A stretch of DNA of 64,000 bases from Acidobacteriota bacterium (GTDB taxonomy: Bacteria; Acidobacteriota; Vicinamibacteria; Vicinamibacterales; UBA2999), in contig JACPCS010000102.1 in the NCBI GenBank assembly GCA_016184455.1, forward strand, positions 11,962-75,961. The letters run 5' to 3'. Below, one piece after another: positions 8,965-56,644 of this stretch. A model generated the notes under the pieces. The model did not search any database and was not told the origin of the DNA. It saw only the letters and a program-made list of their open reading frames with translations. Position 1 is the stretch's first letter. The number at the start of each line of letters is the position of its first letter. Position numbers and translations under genes: made by a program.

Positions 8965-10800
8965 CTACCTGAGGCCGGCCAGGACCTCGAGCGCGGCGGC
9001 GATCCGCCCGGACGGAGCCGCCACGTGCACGCCCTGGACGGCCCCGCGCAGCGCGCGACCGACGTCGCGCGCAATGGCAATCCCTTCGGCGGCCGCCGTG
9101 TCGCCGTCGACCCGCCGCATCCGCTCGAGCACCGCCTCGGGCACCCGCACGCCCGGCACCTCGTTGGCCATGAACTCGGCATTCAGCGCACTCTCGAACG
9201 GCCACAGGCCGAGGACGAGCGGAACGTCGGCCGCCGCGATCCGCCGGTAAAACCGCTCGAAGGTGGCCACGTCGAACACGGGTTTCGTGATGGCGAACTC
9301 GGCCCCCGCCTCGACCTTGTACTCGAACCGGCGGACCTCGGCGTCGAGGTCCTCCGCGCCGGGATTGACCTGCACGCCGACGTGAAACGCCGTCGGCCCG
9401 CCGATCGCCTGTCCACCGATGTCGAGGCCGCGATTCAGGCGCGCGACGACGTTGGTCAGACCGATGGAATCGACGTCGAAGACGGCGGTCGCATCCGGAT
9501 AATCGCCCACGGACCGGACGTCGCCGGTGACGATCATCAGGTTTCGCACGCCCATCGCGTGCGCGCCGAGCAGGTCCGACTGCATGCCGAGCAGGTTGCG
9601 GTCGCGGCACGAGTACTGGAGCACCGTTTCGACGCACGCTCGCTGCTGGACGAGCACCGCCAGCGAGAGGGCGCTCATCCGCGCGCCGCGGTGCCCGTCG
9701 GGGATGAGCACCACGTCGACGCCGTGCTGCTTCAGCGCGCGCGCCTGATCGACGATCCCGTCGCTGTCGAATCCCTTGGGCGGCGTCAGCGGGACCATCG
9801 TCGCAAACCGTCCCTCGGCGAGCGCGCGCGCCAGATGCGAGCGCTCCACCTTCGGGATCATCGGCACGCCGGGATCGGCCACCTGGACCTCGAGATCGCG
9901 GCGCGCCGGCGCCGCCGCACGGGCCACCTCCGGCGCGTACTTCTTCACGGCAATCTTGATCTGGCGGATGTGCTCGGGCGTCGTCCCGCAGCAGCCGCCC
10001 ACCAGGCGCACGCCCTGGTTCATGAACCGCCGCGCGTACGACGCCATGTATTCCGGCGACGACAGATAGATGTTGCGCCCCTCGATATCGCGCGGCCGGC
10101 CGGCGTTCGGCTGTGCCGAGAACCGCGCGCGCGTCACCGCCGCCATCCGTTCGATCGTTTCGAGCATCGGCGCCGGCCCGATGCTGCAGTTCACGCCGAC
10201 GAGGTCGGCCTCGGACGCGAGCGCCGGCGCGAACTGCTCGGGCGGCGCGCCGTCGAGCGTGTTGCCGTCCTCCTCGATCGTCATCTGCGCCACGACCGGC
10301 AGCCGGCACACGCTGCGGATCGCGGCGATCGCGGCACGGAGCTCGTTGACGTCCCGGAATGTCTCGAGGACGAAGAGGTCGACGCCGCCGGCGAGGAGCG
10401 CCTCGGCCTGCTCGCGGACGAACGCCTCCGCCTCGTCGGTGCCCGTCTTGCCCCACGGCTCGATGCGGATGCCGAGCGGCCCGATCGCACCCGCGACGTA
10501 CACGTCGCCTCCGGCAACGGCCCGCGCGAGCCGCGCCCCTTCCATGTTGATCTCACGGAGTCGATCGGCGAGGCCGAAGCCGCGCAGCTTCACCCGGTTG
10601 GCTCCGAACGTGTTCGTCTCGATCACGTCCGCGCCCGCGCGGACGTACTCCTGGTGCACCTCGGCCACGCGGCCAGGATCGGTCAGGTTGAGCGCATCGA
10701 AGCACCGGTTGATGAAGACGCCCTTCGCATAGAGCATCGTCCCCATCGCCCCATCGCAGACGAGCACACGTTCGTCGATCGCGTCCAGAAACGGCTTCAT
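8965..10800 (-). CDS. bifunctional homocysteine S-methyltransferase / methylenetetrahydrofolate reductase (YitJ-like fusion)
   Basis: The N-terminal Hcy-binding domain reads VLVCDGAMGTMLY...ETNTFGAN...GGCCGTTPEHI. The C-terminal MTHFR-like half reads LQYSCRDRNLLGMQSDLLGA...MIVTGD...FEYKVEAGAEFAITKPVFD. Confidence 0.8.
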   Translation of the reverse strand: MKPFLDAIDERVLVCDGAMGTMLYAKGVFINRCFDALNLTDPGRVAEVHQEYVRAGADVIETNTFGANRVKLRGFGLADRLREINMEGARLARAVAGGDVYVAGAIGPLGIRIEPWGKTGTDEAEAFVREQAEALLAGGVDLFVLETFRDVNELRAAIAAIRSVCRLPVVAQMTIEEDGNTLDGAPPEQFAPALASEADLVGVNCSIGPAPMLETIERMAAVTRARFSAQPNAGRPRDIEGRNIYLSSPEYMASYARRFMNQGVRLVGGCCGTTPEHIRQIKIAVKKYAPEVARAAAPARRDLEVQVADPGVPMIPKVERSHLARALAEGRFATMVPLTPPKGFDSDGIVDQARALKQHGVDVVLIPDGHRGARMSALSLAVLVQQRACVETVLQYSCRDRNLLGMQSDLLGAHAMGVRNLMIVTGDVRSVGDYPDATAVFDVDSIGLTNVVARLNRGLDIGGQAIGGPTAFHVGVQVNPGAEDLDAEVRRFEYKVEAGAEFAITKPVFDVATFERFYRRIAAADVPLVLGLWPFESALNAEFMANEVPGVRVPEAVLERMRRVDGDTAAAEGIAIARDVGRALRGAVQGVHVAAPSGRIAAALEVLAGLR

Positions 10801-11342: not shown

Positions 11343-11356
11343 ACGAGGATCATAAA

Positions 11357-11386
11357 CCACCAACCACCAACCACCATCCACCAACC
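11357..11386. repeat. CCACCAA heptamer tandem array (4 units) in a 51-bp divergent intergenic gap
   Basis: ccaccaa ccaccaa ccaccat ccaccaa cc lies between the nuoI start (11342) and the kinase start (11394). Confidence 0.9.
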
Positions 11387-13554: not shown

Positions 13555-14166
13555 ATGGAACCCGCGGTGGCCATAGTGGCGGATGGAGCCGCGACGTCCG
13601 ACCTGCGCCTGACGATCGACGATCGCCGGGCCGCCATCATCCGCCGGCTCACCATCTGGCGCGACGAGGGGGTGGCGTGGGTCAAGACGCTCGCTTCGGC
13701 GGCCGTGTACGCGACGCTCATCGTCACGTTCGGCTTCCAGGTAGCGCGCGTCGAGGGCCAGAGCATGGCGCCGACGCTGGCGGATCAGGATCGGCTCATC
13801 GTCAACAAGCTGGCGTACCGGATGGGCGAGCCGCGGCGCGGCGACATCGTCATGCTCTACTACCCGCTCAACCCGGACAAGTCATTCGTCAAGCGCGTGA
13901 TCGCCGAGGAAGGCGACCAGGTGCGCATCGTCGACGGCCGCGTGTTCGTCAACGACGTGCCGATGAACGATGACTTCGTGCCGCCCGAGTACCGCAGCCA
14001 CGACGACTTCGGACCGTCGGTCGTGCCCGAAGGGTACTACTTCGTGATGGGCGACCACCGGAACAACAGCTCCGACAGCCGCCACTGGGGATTCGTGCCG
14101 AAGAAGTACATCATCGGCAAGGTGCAGCTGCGCTGGTGGCCGATCCCGAACGCGCACGTTTTCTGA
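13555..14166 (+). CDS. lepB: signal peptidase I
   Basis: Catalytic boxes GQSMAPTL, FVKRVIA and GDHRNNSSDSR are present. The ATG at 13555 follows the upstream stop; the ORF track start at 13399 overlaps the regulator. Confidence 0.85.
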   Translation: MEPAVAIVADGAATSDLRLTIDDRRAAIIRRLTIWRDEGVAWVKTLASAAVYATLIVTFGFQVARVEGQSMAPTLADQDRLIVNKLAYRMGEPRRGDIVMLYYPLNPDKSFVKRVIAEEGDQVRIVDGRVFVNDVPMNDDFVPPEYRSHDDFGPSVVPEGYYFVMGDHRNNSSDSRHWGFVPKKYIIGKVQLRWWPIPNAHVF

Positions 14167-16640: not shown

Positions 16641-17157
16641 CCTTGCGCCGGTAGACGCCGGAGCGGCCACCTCGCTTTTCCACCAGGAAGATGTCGCCGA
16701 TGACCATCGCCTTGTCGACCGCCTTGACCATGTCGTAGACGGTGAGCGCCGCCACGGCCACGGCGACGAGCGCCTCCATTTCGACGCCGGTCTGCGCGTT
16801 GGTGCGGACGCGCGACTCGATCCGATAGCCCCGACGCGCCGGCGTCAGCTCCACGGAGACGTGCGTGAGCGGGAGCGGGTGACACAACGGGATGATGGCA
16901 GAGGTCTGCTTGGCGGCCATGATTCCGGCGAGCCGTGCCGCCTGCAGCGGATCGCCTTTGGCGACCTCGCCACGGCGGATCAGCCGCAGCGCGTCGGACG
17001 TCATCGTGATCTCGCCGCGCGCGATCGCCTCTCGCGTCGTGACCGGCTTGTCGCCCACGTCGACCATCTTGACGCGCCCGCGGCGGTCGACGTGCGACAG
17101 TGCCCCAGGCACTCTAGGCACTCTGGGCACCTTAGGCACCCTGGGCACCCGAGGCAC
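16624..17157 (-). CDS. moaC: cyclic pyranopterin monophosphate synthase MoaC with a (PRV)n N-terminal extension
   Basis: [25 protein letters not shown]...[13 protein letters not shown]...[21 protein letters not shown]. The GTG at 17157 is preceded by GGAGGAAG. There are six in-frame GTG codons inside the 9-bp array. Confidence 0.85.
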
Positions 17158-17160
17158 CTT
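17107..17160. repeat. 9-bp tandem array RGGCACYYK x6 spanning the rex stop and the moaC start
   Basis: Units start at 17107, 17116, 17125, 17134, 17143 and 17152. The rex TAA is at 17132-17134 and the moaC GTG at 17155-17157. Confidence 0.9.
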
Positions 17161-19831: not shown

Positions 19832-20935
19832 GTGAACGTGGCCCGGGCGCTGGCGGCGACCGTTCTGGTGCTCGTCGCAATCGGCGACGCCGCGTCCCAG
19901 GGGCCGGTCCGCCGCCTCGCAACAGTCGCGGCGCTGCGCGAATACCCCAGCTACTTCCACCTGCAGAACGTCCTGCTTCACGGCGAGTTCGTCGAGAGCG
20001 GGATCGAAATCGTCCTGCGCGGCGGCGAGCGCGACGTGCCGGTCGTCCTCAAGGACACCACAACGCCGTCCGGTCTCGTCGAAGTGCGAGGCCAGCTCAT
20101 CGACGTCGGCCGCCTCGAGCCGAATGATGCGCGCATCGCGGCCTACGCACAGGAGCGCCGGCTCGATCCGTGGCCGCGGCCGGGCGAAGAGCTGGTCCTC
20201 ATGGTGACAAACGTGACGTCCACGCAGCCGGCGGCGTCACCCTCCGTTCGCGCGCTCGCGCTGCAGCCGTGGCGCTTCGAGGGACAGAAGGTCACCGTCG
20301 TCGGCCAGTTCCGCGGCCGGAATCTGTTTGGCGATCTGCCGAGCGCGCCAGGGAAGAGCCGTTGGGATTTCGTGCTGCGATCCGCGGACGCGGCCGTGTG
20401 GGTCACCGACCTCCAGCCACGCGGACGCGGCTTCGTCCTGTCAGTGGATGCACGCGTCGACACGGGACGCTGGCTCCGCGTGAGCGGCACCGTGGCGCTC
20501 GAGCGCGGACTGGTGACGGTCGCCGGCAACACGCTGGCAGAAGCCGAACCCGACACGGCGCCGGTGGAGGAAGAGGCGCCACCGCCACCGCCTCCCGCCG
20601 AACCGGGCGACGTGGTGTTCAGCTCGCCAACCGAGGGCGAAGCCGATGTGCCCGCGGCGGGCCGTGTCCGCGTTCAGTTTTCCAGGGGCATCGACCCGAC
20701 ATCGCTGACCGATCGTATTCGGGTCGGCTATCTCGGTGCGGCGCCCGACGCGGGTCAGGCTGCTCTGGAATTCACCTCCGCGTACGACGCCGCGACGAGG
20801 GCCGTTGAGATCCGGTTCACGCGTCCGCTCCAGCCCTTCCGGACCGTGCGGATCGAGCTGCTCGAAGGCATACGGACGTTCGACGGCGCGCCCGTGCGGC
20901 CCTGGACGCTTACCTTCTCTGTCGGTAGTAACTGA
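19832..20935 (+). CDS. secreted hypothetical protein with a C-terminal SbsA/Big_5-type Ig-like domain
   Basis: It starts at a GTG, has a signal peptide and a Pro-rich linker (EEEAPPPPPPAEPG). The C-terminus reads VVFSSPTEGEADVPAAGRVRVQFSRGIDPTSL... Confidence 0.55.
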   Translation: MNVARALAATVLVLVAIGDAASQGPVRRLATVAALREYPSYFHLQNVLLHGEFVESGIEIVLRGGERDVPVVLKDTTTPSGLVEVRGQLIDVGRLEPNDARIAAYAQERRLDPWPRPGEELVLMVTNVTSTQPAASPSVRALALQPWRFEGQKVTVVGQFRGRNLFGDLPSAPGKSRWDFVLRSADAAVWVTDLQPRGRGFVLSVDARVDTGRWLRVSGTVALERGLVTVAGNTLAEAEPDTAPVEEEAPPPPPPAEPGDVVFSSPTEGEADVPAAGRVRVQFSRGIDPTSLTDRIRVGYLGAAPDAGQAALEFTSAYDAATRAVEIRFTRPLQPFRTVRIELLEGIRTFDGAPVRPWTLTFSVGSN

Positions 20936-20947
20936 AACGTCCTTATC

Positions 20948-20979
20948 AAATCCCGAATCCCAAAACCCAAATCCCAACC
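20948..20979. repeat. CCCNNNN heptamer array (4 C-tracts), left bracket of the low-GC islet
   Basis: tCCCgaatCCCaaaaCCCaaatCCCaacc, with tracts at 20952, 20959, 20966 and 20973. It is an imperfect inverted repeat of 22244..22266. Confidence 0.85.
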
Positions 20980-21026
20980 GCCACATTCGCGGGCCGCTTC
21001 GATGTCTTACACTGCAGACTCACGAC

Positions 21027-21419
21027 TCAGTCTTCTTCTGTCTTGGAATTGCGCAGAATGGTTGCAACAATCTTAACGAGCTGCCTCGATTCTTCTATGA
21101 GCGGGTGGTCTGAGGGGTCAAGCAACCCTGTTTCCTTCAAGACTCGCAGCCGCAAGCGTGTCTCCTTGATTTCGCGAAGCACGATTCGCTCCTTTGCCAC
21201 AAAATCTCTTTTACTGGACCCGTCGTCCGCCTCTTCGGCATTTGACGCTGCTGATACGGCTGCATTCACAAGTTGTGCAGAAAGTGCAGCGCCGACACCG
21301 CTCCTGGCGTGCAATTTCTGAGCGACTCGAACGACGTCGCACGCAAAAACGAATAGTCTCTCGCGGATTTCGTACGGCTTATCGCTCGGTGCAGTCAAGA
21401 TATCGCCTGCCGTGCACAT
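21027..21419 (-). CDS. four-helix-bundle protein (23S rRNA intervening-sequence protein family)
   Basis: YEIRERLFVFACDVVRVAQKL...LSAQLVNAAVSAASNAEEADDGSSKRDFVAKERIVLREIKETRLRLRVL matches the family pattern from memory. Local GC is low. Confidence 0.65.
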   Translation of the reverse strand: MCTAGDILTAPSDKPYEIRERLFVFACDVVRVAQKLHARSGVGAALSAQLVNAAVSAASNAEEADDGSSKRDFVAKERIVLREIKETRLRLRVLKETGLLDPSDHPLIEESRQLVKIVATILRNSKTEED

Positions 21420-21721
21420 CGTGTTCCATCATGACAGTTCGCACCGGCTGGTGATTCGTTGGCGCCGTGACAAGAAATGCGGCGGCTCAGATTCCGGGGC
21501 ACGTCATCCGGTACAGTTGTGATCCCACCGGGTTCAAGTGAGTTGGATTTGGCTTCGGGACCTCGCGTCTAAGAAGGCCATGCCGCCTCTCAATCACAAC
21601 AAACCCGTGCTGGCGACATCCGTGAACTCCCGATGAATTTGATGCGGTCGGATCCGGCGTGGCGGGTTTACTCAGATCCTGAAGACGTCGGCACGCGTCG
21701 GCACGGCAATCGCTCTCCCTT

Positions 21722-22159
21722 CTATGCGCTGCATCTGTGTCGTGGTGTCGACGTCGTCGTCGCGATGCCTGCAGCCGCTGTCGCCAGTCCAGGTATAGGC
21801 GCTTGAACTGTCGCTGCAGCCTTTTCGAGGAGGATGATTTCAGCGGCCATTGCGACGATGGCGCTTTTGGCAACATCGAACAGGGACAGAGCCTCCTGAA
21901 TGCTCAAACACTCTTGCGGATGCATCGTCGGATTGCGATGCAAGTCTCGGATGTGGCCCAGAATGCCAGTCACTTTCGGGTTACCGCCAGCTGCCTTGAT
22001 CTCGTTGATGCACTGGGCCCATTCGGGCGATTTCGTGCCAGCCGGAAGTCCCTTCGTCAGCGCGTGGTACTTACGAAGAACGCCTTCGGTTGCCCGCATG
22101 ACATGAAATGCGGCCGCGGTGGGAACTTCGAACGCTAGACATCGCTTTATCGCGCGCAT
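21722..22159 (-). CDS. hypothetical protein, HEPN/DUF4145-like (motif-level inference)
   Basis: The 145-aa ORF starts at the ATG at 22159 and is all-helical in appearance. It contains RATEGVLRKY and IRDLHRNPTMH (R-x4-H). Local GC is low. Confidence 0.4.
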   Translation of the reverse strand: MRAIKRCLAFEVPTAAAFHVMRATEGVLRKYHALTKGLPAGTKSPEWAQCINEIKAAGGNPKVTGILGHIRDLHRNPTMHPQECLSIQEALSLFDVAKSAIVAMAAEIILLEKAAATVQAPIPGLATAAAGIATTTSTPRHRCSA

Positions 22160-22243
22160 TGCACCCTCACGGATCCAATGTGTCGATGAGGGTCACACCG
22201 GAGGCGTGACGCCGTCAAGCGGTACTTGCCTTGTGCTTCGGAT

Positions 22244-22266
22244 CGTTGGGCTTTGGGATTTGGGAC
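22244..22266. repeat. GGGNNNN heptamer array (3 G-tracts), right bracket of the low-GC islet
   Basis: gttGGGctttGGGatttGGGacc. Its reverse complement tcccaaatcccaaagcccaac matches the left array tcccaaaacccaaatcccaac at most positions. Confidence 0.8.
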
Positions 22267-22998
22267 CTATTCCCAGAGCGATCCCTGGCGTCGCAGATCC
22301 TCGACCGCCTGGCGGACGCGGTCGATCAGCGCGGCTCGATCGTCGACCGTCAGCCCCGCGGTCGGTATCGGCGCGCCGATCCGCACGCTGACGCGCACCG
22401 GTCTCACGAACGCACTGCCTTTCCGCATCGCCGCGCGTCCTCCCTGGACCGCCACCGGCACGACGGGCACCTGCGCCTTGATTGCCATGATGAAGCCGCC
22501 CTTCTTGAACGGGAGGAGCGCCCCGGTGCGGCTCCGCGTGCCCTCAGGGAAGATCAGGAAGGAGTTGCCCGCGCGGAGCGAGTCCGCTCCCCTGGCAATG
22601 GACGTCATCGCCTTGTCGCGGTCGCTGCGCTCGATCGGCACGAAGCCGCCCACGTCGAACACCGTGCCCATGATGGGAAACCGGTGCAGTTCCGCCTTGT
22701 AGAGGACATGAAGCTGCGGGTGCAGCGCACGGAACAGGACCGGCGGATCGACGTTGCTTTCGTGGTTGGAGCAGAAGACGACAGCCGTGCGCGGCACATG
22801 CGCGCGTCCGGCCACGCGGTAGCGGATGCCGGCAAGGGCGAGCGCGAGGCCGACGCCCGCATGCCCGAGCGCGTAGAGGCCGCGCTTCCAGCGCAGCACG
22901 GCGGCAAAGAAGAGACCGATCGGCCCGGCCACGGCAATGTAGGCAACGGTGACCGCGTAGGTGACGACCGAACGGAGCGCCACGAGAAAGTCGGCCAC
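22267..22998 (-). CDS. plsC: 1-acyl-sn-glycerol-3-phosphate acyltransferase
   Basis: The motifs NHESNVD, FPEGTRS and VPVVPVAV are present. The likely start is the GTG at 22998; the ORF track start at 23202 reads through the carD terminator. Confidence 0.8.
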   Translation of the reverse strand: MADFLVALRSVVTYAVTVAYIAVAGPIGLFFAAVLRWKRGLYALGHAGVGLALALAGIRYRVAGRAHVPRTAVVFCSNHESNVDPPVLFRALHPQLHVLYKAELHRFPIMGTVFDVGGFVPIERSDRDKAMTSIARGADSLRAGNSFLIFPEGTRSRTGALLPFKKGGFIMAIKAQVPVVPVAVQGGRAAMRKGSAFVRPVRVSVRIGAPIPTAGLTVDDRAALIDRVRQAVEDLRRQGSLWE

Positions 22999-23950: not shown

Positions 23951-24475
23951 ATGCCCCAGATGGTCGTCGCGGTCGCGCTGGCCGTCGGCCTGGCTGCACA
24001 GGCGGTCCGTGCCCCGTTCGTCGCCACCCCACCAGACGTCGTCGATCGCATGCTCGCGCTCGCGCAGGTCACCGCCCGCGACGCCGTCTACGATCTGGGC
24101 TGCGGCGACGGACGCATCGTCATCGCCGCGGCCCGAACCTACGGCGCGCGAGGAGTAGGCGTCGATATCGACCCCGCACGGATTGCCGAGGCGCGGCAGC
24201 ACGCGCGCGAGGCGGGCGTGGAGCACCTGGTGACGTTTCGCGTGGAAGATGCGCGCACGACCGACGTCTCGGACGCGACGGTGGTCACCCTGTACCTGGT
24301 GGCCGCCCTGAACGCGCAGCTCCGTCCCCGTCTGATGATGCAGCTCCGGCCCGGCACGCGCATCGTGTCCCACAATTTCCCGATCGGCGACTGGGAACCC
24401 GATCGCGTGGAAGTGCTCAGGAGCGCCGACGGGCAGACGCGGACGTTGTATCTATGGAGAATTCCGGAGGCCTGA
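23951..24475 (+). CDS. class I SAM-dependent methyltransferase (small, with a signal-like N-terminus)
   Basis: VYDLGCGDGRIVIAAARTYGARGVGVDIDP...VTLYL. Confidence 0.65.
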   Translation: MPQMVVAVALAVGLAAQAVRAPFVATPPDVVDRMLALAQVTARDAVYDLGCGDGRIVIAAARTYGARGVGVDIDPARIAEARQHAREAGVEHLVTFRVEDARTTDVSDATVVTLYLVAALNAQLRPRLMMQLRPGTRIVSHNFPIGDWEPDRVEVLRSADGQTRTLYLWRIPEA

Positions 24476-24499
24476 AGGCCTCCGGCCGCCAACTGCGAG

Positions 24500-29305: not shown

Positions 29306-29309
29306 TCGT

Positions 29310-29405
29310 CCGGGATGCGGGATCCGGGACCCGGGATTCGGAAGGTTCTCGGCTCGTCGACTGTGATTTCCGCGGGATCCCGGACCCCGGATCCCGGATC
29401 CCGGC
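29310..29405. repeat. inverted heptamer arrays (GGGAYYC x4 / complement x4) around a 33-nt spacer; G-quadruplex-type motifs on both strands
   Basis: The left array has GGG at 29312, 29319, 29326 and 29333. The right array has CCC at 29379, 29386, 29393 and 29400. The element fills the gap between the upstream stop (29406) and the cobA start (29305). Confidence 0.9.
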
Positions 29406-30164: not shown

Positions 30165-30267
30165 CTAGCCGGTAGGTGGTAGCTGGTAGCTGGTAGCACG
30201 TCTCGTGGTTCGCGGTGAGTGGTTCTTGGTTCCTGCTACCAGCTACCGCCTATCGGCTACCGGCTAG
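30165..30267. repeat. inverted heptamer arrays (GGTAGCT x4 / complement x4) around a GGTTC-periodic 35-nt spacer
   Basis: GGTAG occurs at 30171, 30178, 30185 and 30192. CTACC/CTATC occurs at 30236, 30243, 30250 and 30257. The right array overlaps the last codons and stop of thrC. Confidence 0.9.
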
Positions 30268-38036: not shown

Positions 38037-38909
38037 ATGGGTAGCTGGGTTGCTCGGTGGCTGGGTGGCTGGGGTGCGGCGCTGATGGGAGCGTGGGCGT
38101 TTTCCCCAGCTCCCCAGCCACCCAGCTACCCGGCTGCCTCGTCATGCACAACCGCCACGAAGCTGGTCCCGATGAGCGGCGTCGCCGAGGCGAGCGGCTT
38201 GACCCTCAGCCGGCGCACGCCGGGACTGCTCTGGACGCACAACGATTCGGGCGAGCCGGTGCTGTTCGCCGTCGATGCTGCCGGAACGGTCAAAGGACGC
38301 GTACAGGTGACCGGTGCGCGCGTCGTCGACTGGGAAGACATTGCCGTCGCGCCGTGCACCCAGGGCTCCTGCCTGTACATCGCCGATATCGGCGACAACC
38401 ACCGCAGCCGGCGCGCGATCACCATCTATCGGGTCCCTGAGCCGAGCGCCGATCAGGGCGCGAGCGAAGCGCCGGACGTCTGGAACGCAGCGTATCCCGA
38501 CGGTGCGCACGACGCCGAAGGGATCTTCGTCTCCGGCAGCGCCCTGTACATCGTCACGAAGGACGAGTCATCGGCGACGGCGCTCTATCGGTTGCCGCTG
38601 CTGCCAAAGGGCGGGCGCGAGGCCCGACTGGAGCTCGTGTCGCGGCTCCCGCTCGAGCACGTCACGGGCGCAGCGATGTCGCCCGACGGCGCGTGGGTGG
38701 CGCTGCGAACCAACGACGCGCTGCTCTTCTATCGCACACGCGATCTCATCGGCGGCCAGCCAGCGGCGCCGCAGGGCGTCGATCTCACGGCTGTCGGCGA
38801 ACCCCAGGGCGAGGGCGTTGCGCTCGGTGCCGACGGCCAGGTCTATCTCGCCGGAGAAGGCGGCGGCCGCGGTGGTACGCTGGCCGCGCTCCGGTGTACG
38901 CTCCGCTGA
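38037..38909 (+). CDS. hypothetical secreted protein, beta-propeller-like (start uncertain)
   Basis: The ORF track start at 38037 translates the palindromic array. An internal ATG lies at 38172. The body (LWTHNDSGEPVLFAVD...CLYIADIGDN...ALYIVTKDE...) looks like a blade-repeat fold. Confidence 0.45.
   Translation: MGSWVARWLGGWGAALMGAWAFSPAPQPPSYPAASSCTTATKLVPMSGVAEASGLTLSRRTPGLLWTHNDSGEPVLFAVDAAGTVKGRVQVTGARVVDWEDIAVAPCTQGSCLYIADIGDNHRSRRAITIYRVPEPSADQGASEAPDVWNAAYPDGAHDAEGIFVSGSALYIVTKDESSATALYRLPLLPKGGREARLELVSRLPLEHVTGAAMSPDGAWVALRTNDALLFYRTRDLIGGQPAAPQGVDLTAVGEPQGEGVALGADGQVYLAGEGGGRGGTLAALRCTLR
38039..38131. repeat. inverted G-rich/C-rich 7-8-mer arrays (GGGTAGCTGGG... / ...CCCAGCTACCC) around a 29-nt spacer
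   Basis: The terminal 11 nt gggtagctggg (38039-38049) are exactly complementary to cccagctaccc (38121-38131). The internal GGCTGGG units are imperfectly mirrored. Confidence 0.85.
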
Positions 38910-43185: not shown

Positions 43186-43221
43186 ACCGTTCGGGTCGTT
43201 CGGGCCGTTCGGATCGTTCGC
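43186..43221. repeat. 9-bp tandem array NNCGTTCGG x4
   Basis: CGTTCG(G) occurs at 43188, 43197, 43206 and 43215, in the 128-nt gap between the ankyrin stop and the NHL start. The core is the same as in 55362..55404. Confidence 0.9.
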
Positions 43222-52449: not shown

Positions 52450-52470
52450 GGGTAGGGGTAGGGGTCAGGG
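52450..52470 (+). other. canonical G-quadruplex motif GGGTAGGGGTAGGGGTCAGGG overlapping the expected RBS
   Basis: Four G3-4 tracts have loops of 2, 2 and 3 nt and end 6 nt before the ATG at 52477. An unusually A/T-rich stretch (52399..52446) precedes them. Confidence 0.7.
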
Positions 52471-52476
52471 TCTGCA

Positions 52477-52830
52477 ATGACGACGCGACGAACGCCGGGC
52501 AAGCCGCGACGCATCGGCAAGAGCGGCGAGGAGATCTTCCTGCCGCAAGTCGAGAGCAGCGATACGAGCAAGAACCGCCGCGGGCGGCGCCCGACGCATA
52601 CCGAGCACTGGACCAAGGTGACGGTCGTGCTGTTCGACCGTCAGATCGTGTTCCTCGACCGGCTCGGCGCCGACATCCGCGCGGCGAGCGGCGTCGCGAT
52701 CAGCCGCGCGAACGTGATTCGCGCCTTGATCGACGCGCTGAGCGAATCGGACCTCGACCTCACGGGCACGCGGTCGGAAGCCGACCTCAAGGCGATTCTT
52801 ACCGCCCGCCTCGGACGATATCGCACATAA
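52477..52830 (+). CDS. ribbon-helix-helix (ParG/CopG-like) small protein with a basic disordered N-tail
   Basis: TKVTVVLFDRQIVFLDRLGADIRAASGVAISRANVIRALIDAL fits a strand-helix-helix pattern. The N-terminal 45 aa are Arg/Lys-rich. It lies downstream of the ParA-like gene. Confidence 0.55.
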   Translation: MTTRRTPGKPRRIGKSGEEIFLPQVESSDTSKNRRGRRPTHTEHWTKVTVVLFDRQIVFLDRLGADIRAASGVAISRANVIRALIDALSESDLDLTGTRSEADLKAILTARLGRYRT

Positions 52831-52895
52831 CCACGAAGGCCACGAAGATCACGAATACTTTTTTCGGTTCGTGTTCTTCGTGTGCTTCGTGGTTG
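52829..52895. repeat. inverted 9-bp arrays (CACGAAGNN x3 / complement x3) forming a near-perfect hairpin
   Basis: CACGAA occurs at 52832, 52841 and 52850. TTCGTG occurs at 52869, 52878 and 52887. The central loop is cttttttcg. The element begins at the RHH stop codon and overlaps the 3' end of the convergent gene. Confidence 0.9.
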
Positions 52896-55354: not shown

Positions 55355-55382
<28 letters not shown>

Positions 55383-56644
55383 CGTTCGGGGCGTTCGACG
55401 TTCGTGATCAACCTCACACTCCGCTGAAACGTCACGTACGCGACGGCCCACTGCACGAGCACCATCAGGCGATTGCGGAAGCCGATGAGCTCGAAGATGT
55501 GCAGGAACAGCCAGAAGATCCAGGCGAGCACGCCAGAGAATCGCAGCCAGCCGAGATCCGCGATCGCGGCGCCGCGGCCGACAATGGCCAGGTTCCCCTT
55601 ATCCCGATACGCGAACGGCGCGGTCGAAGCTCCACGCAGCCGCCTCAGAATCCCGCGCGCCACGTGCTGCGCCTGCTGAATGGCCACCGGTGCCACGCCT
55701 GGAAGCTGGCGTCCGTCGCGGTCGACGGCCGCCGCGGCGTCGCCAATCACGAATACTTCCGGATGCCCAGGCACGGAGAGGTCGGGCGCGACCATCACCC
55801 GGCCAGCGCGGTCGAGCGGCGCACCAAGCGTACGGAGGAGGGGCGACGCTGTCACTCCCGCGGTCCACAGCACGGTGCCTGCGGCGAGACGGTCGTCGAT
55901 GCCGTCGCGGCGCAACAGCACGCCATGCGCATCCACCCCTGTCACGGTGGTCGCCTCGCGTACCTCGATCCCGAGACGACGGAGCGAAGAGCGCGCGGCC
56001 TCGCGCAGCCTCGGAGGAAACGATGGCAGGATCGTCGGCCCCGCCTCCACGAGGACAACGCGGGCACGGCCCGGATCGATCGATTGGAACTCGTGGCGCA
56101 GTGTCTGGCGCGCAATCTCGGCGAGCGTGCCCGCGAGCTCCACGCCGGTCGGACCGCCGCCGACGAGGACGAACGTGATCAGCTCCTGCCGCCGCGCGGC
56201 GTCGGTCTCGCGCTCAGCGCGCTCGAACGCGAGCAGGATGCGCCGGCGCATCTCGAGCGCGTCCTCGAGCGTCTTCAGCCCGGGCGCATGGGGCGCCCAC
56301 TCGTCGTGGCCAAAGTACGTATGGCTCGAGCCGGCGGCAACGATCAGATAGTCATACGCGATCTCGGTGCCGTCCTCGAGCCGCACCTGCCGGCGCTGCA
56401 CGTCGATGACGACGACCTCGCCGAGCAGCACCCGCACGTTCGGCGCGCGCCGCAGAATCCAGCGGATCGGCGATGCCACGTCGCCCGGCGAGAGCGTCGC
56501 CGTGGCGACCTGATAGAGCAGCGGCTGGAAGAGGTGATAGTTGTGCCGGTCGAGCAGCGTGACCCGCACGGGCGCGCCGCGGAGCGCCTTGGCCGCGTTG
56601 AGCCCCCCGAATCCGCCTCCGATGATGACGACGTGGGGTTGCAC
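55355..56644 (-). CDS. ndh: type II NADH dehydrogenase (NDH-2)
   Basis: [27 protein letters not shown] and VFVIGDAA. It starts at the GTG at 56644. Confidence 0.8.
55362..55404. repeat. 9-bp tandem array NNNCGTTCG x5 within a convergent gene overlap
   Basis: CGTTCG occurs at 55365, 55374, 55383, 55392 and 55399. It encodes the ispG tail PERSDRS and, on the other strand, the ndh tail [13 protein letters not shown]. Confidence 0.9.

Follow-up and report, generated by a model that had tools for sequence, protein, structure and literature searches.

What does a gene of the four-helix-bundle family known from 23S rRNA intervening sequences (IVSs) do between two protein-coding genes, and what are the inverted arrays of heptamers that enclose it there? 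The question is raised by a low-GC islet in the 64,000-nucleotide stretch of DNA from an uncultured Acidobacteriota bacterium of the order Vicinamibacterales that was analysed here (the window). An earlier note, made from the letters alone, described this islet as a segment of ~1.3 kb between two convergent genes, lower in GC content than its flanks, with imperfect inverted heptamer arrays at its ends and two small helical open reading frames (ORF1 and ORF2), and took it for an IVS-like cassette outside rRNA. In our analysis the architecture, the intergenic site and the link between the arrays and the protein family stand, while the two-gene unit and the recent arrival implied by the low GC content do not. 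With moderate confidence, we read the islet as a free-standing counterpart of the ORF-bearing 23S rRNA IVSs, in which a PF05635 gene lies between two inverted arrays of ~7-nt units whose arms would pair and whose heptamers the protein probably recognises.

The assignment of ORF1 to the 23S rRNA IVS four-helix-bundle family is borne out by scores above the curated cut-offs of both PF05635 (38.2 bits against 33.8) and TIGR02436 (55.1 bits against 24). Its Pfam and NCBIfam matches were to this family only, and included no IS200/IS605-type Y1 transposase. A profile of the ORF1 subfamily matched the Protein Data Bank (PDB) entry 2RLD (E 1e-10), a homologue deposited as five chains. We found 190 homologues of ORF1, the best 120 of the 190 at about 60-81% identity, and because dN/dS amongst intact orthologues was 0.07-0.18, proteins of the ORF1 type are under purifying selection.

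The islet fills the space between the stop codons of its two convergent neighbours (Table 1), within a string of genes that reads OPT transporter, Big_5-domain protein, islet, PlsC, CarD. An Rfam scan of the 64-kb window returned one tRNA only, and the islet is flanked by protein-coding genes, so it does not lie within an rRNA gene. Windowed GC content was 0.52-0.59 over 20900-22250 compared with 0.66-0.72 (about 0.68) in the flanks, and codon usage agreed, with GC content at third codon positions (GC3) of 0.557 in ORF1 and 0.610 in ORF2 against 0.82-0.89 in four neighbouring genes. No sigma-70-like promoter was found in the islet. Nine contigs of the source population, all taken from a single study, had the islet sequence with 100% identity and thus showed no array copy-number polymorphism. 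The best-matching genome loci for the window were metagenome-assembled genomes (MAGs) of Vicinamibacterales.

No inverted repeat of the region is better than the one at the ends of the islet, which is 21 nt long and 90% complementary (20958-20978 and 22245-22265, 1266 nt apart), and both arms are arrays of period 7 according to Tandem Repeats Finder (TRF), with 4.4 units at 20947-20977 and 2.9 units at 22246-22265. The unit, when read on the sense strand, is CCCAAnn in the upstream array and nnTTGGG in the downstream one. The pattern GGGN4GGGN4GGG occurs eight times in the window against 1.19 expected, a number that none of 100 shuffles reached, and the minimum-free-energy fold of the whole islet RNA is, in silico, closed by the arrays. 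The earlier note had listed the two end arrays correctly and had overlooked a third, degenerate copy between the two ORFs. Read along the minus strand, the islet therefore runs CCC-type array (22265-22245), ORF2, degenerate CCC-type array (21563-21541), ORF1 and GGG-type array (20978-20948). The inner array is a direct repeat of the outer one (81% over 16 nt), forms an inverted repeat with the left arm as well, and occupies the position that a CCCAAnn array takes upstream of the four-helix gene in other loci; it is the original 5' arm of a canonical unit that consists of ORF1 and its arrays (20947-21563, minus strand). Likewise, the downstream arm matches in position and unit type the GGGNTTT arrays found 3' of orthologous genes in five other loci (L090, L091, L093, L096 and L113; loci are designated by such numbers where they have to be told apart).

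These arrays go with the gene family. We scanned Joint Genome Institute (JGI) metagenome contigs with the subfamily alignment and obtained 80 loci, chosen by protein similarity only, of which 66 had both flanks and 59 were non-redundant; a locus was called framed when the 300 nt preceding the gene and the 260 nt following it shared an inverted repeat with a score of at least 14. Such a repeat was present in 53 of the 59 non-redundant loci and in none of 400 random windows of related genome loci, whose maximum score was 13. The arms nearly always had period 7; in the upstream arm a CCCAA core is followed by two variable bases, and the downstream arm has the complement. The variable bases define classes of unit (CCCAAAT, CCCAACT, CCCAACG and others), and the dominant unit was the same in both arms of 36 out of 62 loci, compared with 17.8 expected (permutation p<1e-4). 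The same frame recurs at other sites, as between DUF1761 and M49 peptidase genes in L093 and L096, the latter unit folding in silico with z = -7.3.

The frame also extends beyond this subfamily. Genes of a second Acidobacterial subfamily (L018, L025 and L026) stand between long inverted arrays of a 9-nt unit, GGGTGCCnn; two Bacteroidota genes met by chance in fetched loci have heptamer frames of AATTAGn (Daejeonella) and of CACTGAC type (a Cyclobacteriaceae MAG), and Nostoc and Aulosira have a TTCAAAA frame. Amongst plasmid genes annotated 'four helix bundle protein' in RefSeq/GenBank, which cover five phyla, all 13 had inverted short-period arrays on both sides, and in 10 of the 13 these arrays beat their shuffles. 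The hosts are Nostoc, Aulosira, Anabaena, Euhalothece, Planktothrix, Gloeocapsa and Pseudanabaena (Cyanobacteriota), Treponema saccharophilum (Spirochaetota), Bernardetia and Chondrinema (Bacteroidota), Monoglobus (Bacillota) and Chlorohelix (Chloroflexota). The frame thus surrounds PF05635 genes in at least six bacterial phyla, with a unit that differs between subfamilies and matches between the two arms of a locus, and the suggestion that the protein family and inverted arrays belong together holds well beyond the window.

Several of these plasmid cassettes lie inside operons, namely between cas2 and cas1, hsdS and hsdR, a helicase and an N6-methylase gene, DUF1156 and Swt1-HEPN genes, or an RND adaptor and a permease gene. 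The defence-linked ones (L189, in Anabaena cylindrica NC_019772.1 at 155222-156376, and L192, L194, L197 and L198) are positioned between cas2 and cas1, beside cas1, and at hsdS/hsdR, helicase/methylase and DUF1156/Swt1-HEPN junctions. A 'CRISPR-associated 23S rRNA IVP' has been listed (PMC10910872), and the interruption of defence operons by cassettes (cas2 and cas1, hsdS and hsdR) may explain this reported association; the cassette arrays may also confuse repeat and CRISPR finders. On the Gloeocapsa plasmid NC_019759.1 (L199), three heptamer arrays (AATCAAA, ATTTTAG and AATCAAA, at 9870-10088) lie inside an annotated DUF1156 coding sequence, and the four-helix gene 2.1 kb downstream of them is framed by ATTTTAG arrays. 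In L107 (2050-2740) the inverted repeat extends 133 nt, far past the arrays and into the coding flanks, and reflects either a true inverted duplication or a foldback artefact of the assembly.

A second conserved feature lies in the leader of the gene. In an alignment of 37 cassette leaders, the sigma-54-like motif yGGCAyGC-N4-TGCWT was found in 31, 5-7 nt before the start codon; in the window its counterpart overlaps the annotated ATG of ORF1, which has an alternative in-frame start at a TTG at 21398. A start-codon hairpin seemed to co-vary by eye, but RNAalifold gave no conserved pair on the 37 aligned leaders; the leader conservation is that of a sequence motif and not of a hairpin. In the second subfamily (L025 and L026), the spacing of the motif is 13-14 nt, which would fit a leaderless mRNA.

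How old is the cassette at its present site? The gene string around the islet is conserved in ~25 Vicinamibacterales MAGs, and the content of the plsC-proximal site varies amongst them. Four relatives (L022, L090, L091 and L113) are about equally distant from the window, with OPT transporters about 83% identical. Three of these, L090, L091 and L113, have an ORF1 orthologue at exactly the same site, with ~78% amino acid identity, similar to that of the flanking genes, and in an orientation relative to the flanks opposite to that in the window. In L090 and L113 the layout is array, gene (plus strand), array; in L091 it is array, IS3 element, array, gene, array. In L022, there is no intergenic DNA and no array, and the two stop codons overlap. 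L150 has at this site a cargo-less hairpin that adjoins the plsC stop and whose left arm (AAATCCCGAATGCCAAAGCCCAAAGCCCAAATCCCAACC) is nearly identical to that of the window; its own cassette, with a frameshifted four-helix gene, lies 2.4 kb away between a methyltransferase and an ATP-grasp gene. The comparison of orthologous sites that the earlier note had proposed, as occupied or empty, thus yields occupied sites, a site with a hairpin only and a site without arrays, and also a gene inverted in the window.

Since L090, L091 and L113 carry the orthologue there, the cassette is an old, long-term resident of the intergenic site 3' of plsC in one Vicinamibacterales lineage, where different branches show its inversion, its invasion by other DNA, its reduction to a hairpin or its loss. 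A low GC content is a standing property of these genes (GC3 0.60-0.72 for the four-helix gene in relatives) and no sign of recent arrival. Variation is likewise seen at the site between the methyltransferase and ATP-grasp genes, where L090 (6790-7424) has a PIN/PhdYeFM toxin-antitoxin pair, L150 (2633-3217) the four-helix cassette and the window (24466-24490) a plain GC-rich hairpin.

How might such a unit work? We propose that its two arrays would pair with each other, forming either a long stem at the transcript level or a DNA cruciform, and that a stem enclosing the gene would make the insertion tolerable between genes and inside operons. The stem may serve as a processing site, cut by RNase III as in the rRNA IVSs, or as an element of termination or insulation. 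Avd, a basic, pentameric, nucleic-acid-binding four-helix bundle, belongs to the same pentamer-forming family, and the islet protein probably has as its target the tandem heptamers on either side of the gene that encodes it. Recognition of the heptamers would explain that the unit changes with the subfamily while the 7-nt period is kept across phyla.

The model draws on a close parallel with the ORF-bearing 23S rRNA IVSs of Leptospira, Coxiella burnetii and Brucella, in which a PF05635 ORF likewise lies inside long-stem inverted repeats. In the Coxiella IVS, RNase III cuts a stem whose loop contains the S23p ORF; the ORF is preceded by 2-3 tandem GACAGAT heptamers, and cleavage on the 5' side takes place at the first of them (Warrier et al. 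2016, PMC4990558). As in the islet, the heptamers are 5' of the ORF; their copy number varies in Coxiella (PMC4990558). Like the islet cassette, the rRNA IVSs are sporadic amongst relatives and have no recombinase of their own. Unlike them, the islet is located between protein-coding genes (in other taxa, inside operons) rather than in an rRNA gene, its arms consist wholly of tandem short units, and purifying selection acts on its protein (dN/dS ~0.1), in contrast to the Coxiella ORF, for which decay has been reported.

Several points weigh against this reading. There is no clear inverted repeat in 6 of the 66 loci with both flanks. A canonical start site, ~12 nt past the GC of the sigma-54-like motif, would land ~5 nt inside the ORF, for which our model gives no explanation. 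Heptamer binding by the four-helix protein is purely something that we infer; pairing of the arms is predicted by the in silico folds, and their processing by RNase III is likewise inferred. On the sense strand, G.U mismatches between the arms are no more numerous than A.C mismatches (46 against 52); this count gives no evidence of selection on an RNA stem, and concerted evolution or a function at the DNA level would fit equally well. We found neither a target-site duplication nor a recombinase or any other function for mobility, and the earlier note too had seen no recombinase. The islet has no transposase and no direct repeat beside its arms, and does not qualify as an insertion sequence or miniature inverted-repeat transposable element. 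In an all-against-all comparison of 90 loci (L090-L178 and the window), similar cassettes were mostly orthologous and not transposed, and no near-identical copies were found at different sites. Element ends could not be read from multiple copies in one genome, as the three Nostoc flagelliforme copies lie in segmental duplications. The integron cassette was also considered and set aside: the GTTGGGC of the right end fits the GTTRRRY consensus, but the arrays are not compact single-orientation attC hairpins and no integrase is nearby.

Heptamer arrays as such are familiar. The short tandemly repeated repetitive (STRR) sequences of cyanobacteria are heptamer tandem repeats. GGGAATC arrays in Xanthomonas include 70-75 convergent pairs that form inverted repeats, and GGGGAYT arrays are found in Nostoc (Rehm et al. 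2015, PMC4692102), while TAACTGA repeats occur in Beggiatoaceae, Cyanobacteria and Bacteroidetes (MacGregor 2015, PMC4679880); neither paper draws a link from its repeats to the four-helix-bundle family. These known repeats share with the islet arrays tandem units of 7 nt, typically in 3-5 copies and mostly intergenic, and those with G3 units can form G-quadruplexes. Arrays of the islet type differ in that they frame a specific gene and vary in unit with its subfamily, and many, such as TTCAAAA, cannot form G-quadruplexes. We rejected the G-quadruplex as a general mechanism: it fits the GGGNTTT unit here, but TTCAAAA, AATTAGN and CAGTTAC have no G-tracts.

More tentatively, the free-standing IVS reading can be widened into a proposal that we regard as possible but doubtful. 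PF05635 proteins would be sequence-specific binders of tandem heptamers, with one pentamer per array and ~7 nt per subunit; STRR sequences, the Xanthomonas GGGAATC pairs, the TAACTGA repeats and the hairpins of the window would be cis-elements; and a single persistent genetic symbiont in the manner of the REPINs (hairpin-forming doublets of repetitive extragenic palindromic, REP, sequences), able to settle between genes, inside operons and inside rRNA, would exist in three forms, the gene-plus-array cassette, the cargo-less hairpin and the rRNA IVS. On our main reading, a family that takes its inverted heptamer frame with it to every site makes the rRNA IVS look like one special landing place of a more general cassette. 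The locus and its relatives thereby tie together the function of the IVS protein family and the origin of rRNA IVSs, both questions since the early 1990s, with the heptamer repeats of cyanobacteria, Xanthomonas and sulfur bacteria. Full-text searches, limited to a searchable library and so no proof of novelty, did not turn up a description of such a frame around members of the family that stand free of rRNA; IVS-type cassettes outside rRNA with subfamily-specific inverted heptamer arrays apparently form an undescribed wider class.

RAYT genes are single genes framed by inverted cognate REP or REPIN repeats that are specific to their subfamily; they persist vertically at a fixed site for long periods, with cargo-less hairpins elsewhere. 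The main rival to our reading, which it overlaps, is a partnership of this kind, in which the four-helix protein maintains or spreads dispersed array hairpins in trans, the arrays beside its 'master' gene are cognate sites, and the window hairpins at 29309, 30166, 38038 and 52830 are non-autonomous partners of other paralogues. In its favour, inverted cognate repeats flank the gene and vary in unit by subfamily, and the gene has long been passed on vertically without leaving its sites. Hairpins with repeat arms and no cargo are frequent in these genomes. The four in the window, which the earlier note had rightly placed at 29310, 30165, 38039 and 52829 as inverted heptamer or nonamer arrays with short spacers and differing units, have loops of 33, 37, 31 and 12 nt in that order, and similar ones occur in most Vicinamibacterales relatives. 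The guess that they are cargo-less relatives of the cassette gains some support from the hairpin in L150 at the same plsC-proximal site. Solo arrays of the cognate unit are found elsewhere on Euhalothece pEu1 and the Gloeocapsa plasmid, L012 contains a ~230-nt array-ended element in two full copies and a partial third, and a solo GGCAC-type array of the window (17103-17158) resembles the arrays of subfamily-2 genes in relatives.

We nevertheless hold such a partnership to be unlikely. The protein is a four-helix bundle with no nuclease or transposase fold, in place of the Y1 transposase of RAYTs, and its repeats are tandem arrays rather than a single palindrome. Across 1.48 Mb of related genome loci, (CCYAAnn)x3 arrays were seen nowhere but in the cassette, without a dispersed population of the same unit, and each window hairpin carries a different one (GGGATCC, GGTAGCT, GGTGGCTG and ACCACGAAG).

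It is improbable that the arrays are a pre-existing host hairpin, such as a bidirectional terminator, into whose loop foreign genes were inserted, so that they mark a target and not an element. Short-loop repeat-armed hairpins do stand at other intergenic sites of the window, L150 has one without cargo beside plsC, and the IS3 element of L091 and the ORF2 segment show that arrays receive insertions. However, the array type travels with the gene subfamily to unrelated sites (L093 and L096, the methyltransferase/ATP-grasp site of L150 and numerous metagenomic contexts), its unit varies from one protein subfamily to the next, and the closest empty site, that of L022, has no hairpin at all.

The two ORFs could also be taken together, as a horizontally acquired toxin-antitoxin or defence module in which the repeats are incidental, a reading that we consider very improbable. 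It draws on the low GC and GC3, on the frequent presence of PF05635 genes inside defence loci, and on the nature of ORF2. This ORF is identical to NCBI protein HYU37_08605, which comes from a MAG labelled 'Acidobacteria bacterium', and its AlphaFold2 model (predicted local distance difference test 81) has four helices, so the earlier note was right to call it helical. Amongst its 15 detectable homologues and family members, weak profile matches were obtained to DUF4145 in five (best E 1.8e-4) and to HEPN in four; the sequence has an R-x4-H motif, a fold search with the model placed HEPN domains at the top, non-significantly (E 0.5-1.8), and a PDB sequence search gave no match. ORF2 is probably HEPN/DUF4145-like on this predicted and profile evidence. 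Most homologues are ~100 aa longer at the N-terminus (P0002-P0015, up to ~100 aa longer), and the start of ORF2 falls mid-way in their conserved AGRCLAFEVPTAAGFH block, which leaves it without some 100 N-terminal residues.

The pair, moreover, is unique to the window population: an ORF2 homologue and a PF05635 gene occurred together in no other fetched locus, and the contexts of ORF2 homologues are unrelated to one another (beside IS1595, in a phage-like block, near a histidine kinase). A degenerate array separates the two genes. Because the ORF2 segment lies between the outer array and the inner degenerate copy, it is a secondary insertion, and ORF2 is a passenger outside the canonical cassette that arrived later, next to or within the upstream array; its insertion left the outer array copy (22245-22265) and a decayed inner one (21541-21563). 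The IS3 element of L091, between two copies of the upstream array, offers a parallel. The single two-gene unit of the earlier note is accordingly not upheld.

Scarcely credible is a remnant of a diversity-generating retroelement, with ORF1 an Avd-like accessory gene left behind after the loss of the reverse transcriptase and of the template and variable repeats: Avd does belong to the Pfam family of ORF1 (PMC10053308), but no reverse transcriptase was called beside the gene in the annotated contexts (window, L090-L096, other loci, plasmids), where it stands alone with its arrays, the islet is too small for a reverse transcriptase gene, and its repeats are short tandem heptamers and not a template/variable pair. 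Host terminator, HEPN toxin-antitoxin module and retroelement remnant thus each fail specific tests.

Table 1. Features of the islet, its neighbours and other repeat arrays of the window.
Feature	Position	Strand	Description
Big_5-domain gene	19832-20935	plus	convergent left neighbour of the islet
Low-GC islet	20936-22266	minus	from the stop of the Big_5-domain gene (20933-20935) to the plsC stop (22267-22269)
Downstream (3') arm	20947-20978	minus	sense strand GGTTGGGATTTGGGTTTTGGGATTCGGGATTTG; plus strand CCCNAAN x4.4 (TRF)
ORF1	21027-21419	minus	130 aa, 23S rRNA IVS protein family; PF05635 E 1.7e-9, TIGR02436 E 7.4e-15
Sigma-54-like -24/-12 motif	21412-21428	minus	TGGAACACGATGTGCAC (GG-N10-GC); overlaps the annotated ORF1 ATG
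Inner degenerate upstream (5') array	21541-21563	minus	sense strand AGGTCCCGAAGCCAAATCCAAC
ORF2	21722-22159	minus	145 aa, 5'-truncated gene fragment, probably HEPN/DUF4145-like; R-x4-H motif RNPTMH
Outer upstream array	22245-22265	minus	sense strand TCCCAAATCCCAAAGCCCAAC; pairs 90% with the 3' arm
PlsC acyltransferase gene (plsC)	22267-22998	minus	convergent right neighbour of the islet
Four intergenic repeat-armed hairpins	29309-29404, 30166-30266, 38038-38135, 52830-52891		arms of 7-9 nt tandem repeats
Solo non-inverted short-period intergenic arrays	11355-11386, 17103-17158, 43188-43220, 52450-52470, 55360-55409

Amongst the solo arrays, the GGCAC-type nonamer array lies in the rex/moaC spacer, and the arrays that it resembles are those framing the genes of L018, L025 and L026. 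It was considered as the remnant of a cassette site of these loci and rejected, the sites being non-orthologous (Rex and MoaC here, ligase and Rex there). Foldback elements of ~230-370 nt were seen in L012 (7396-7622 and 12056-12287), L031 (6471-6841) and L024 (5446-5725); their ends are inverted tandem arrays, for example three copies of CGCGGATGSA, and their interiors are palindromes without an ORF. The partial third copy in L012 begins at 13920; the presence of all three copies in 22 kb suggests a repeated and possibly mobile non-coding element. Finally, TRF reported 2.5 copies of a 372-nt unit (73% matches) at 473-1408 of the window, probably a repeated domain in a coding region.

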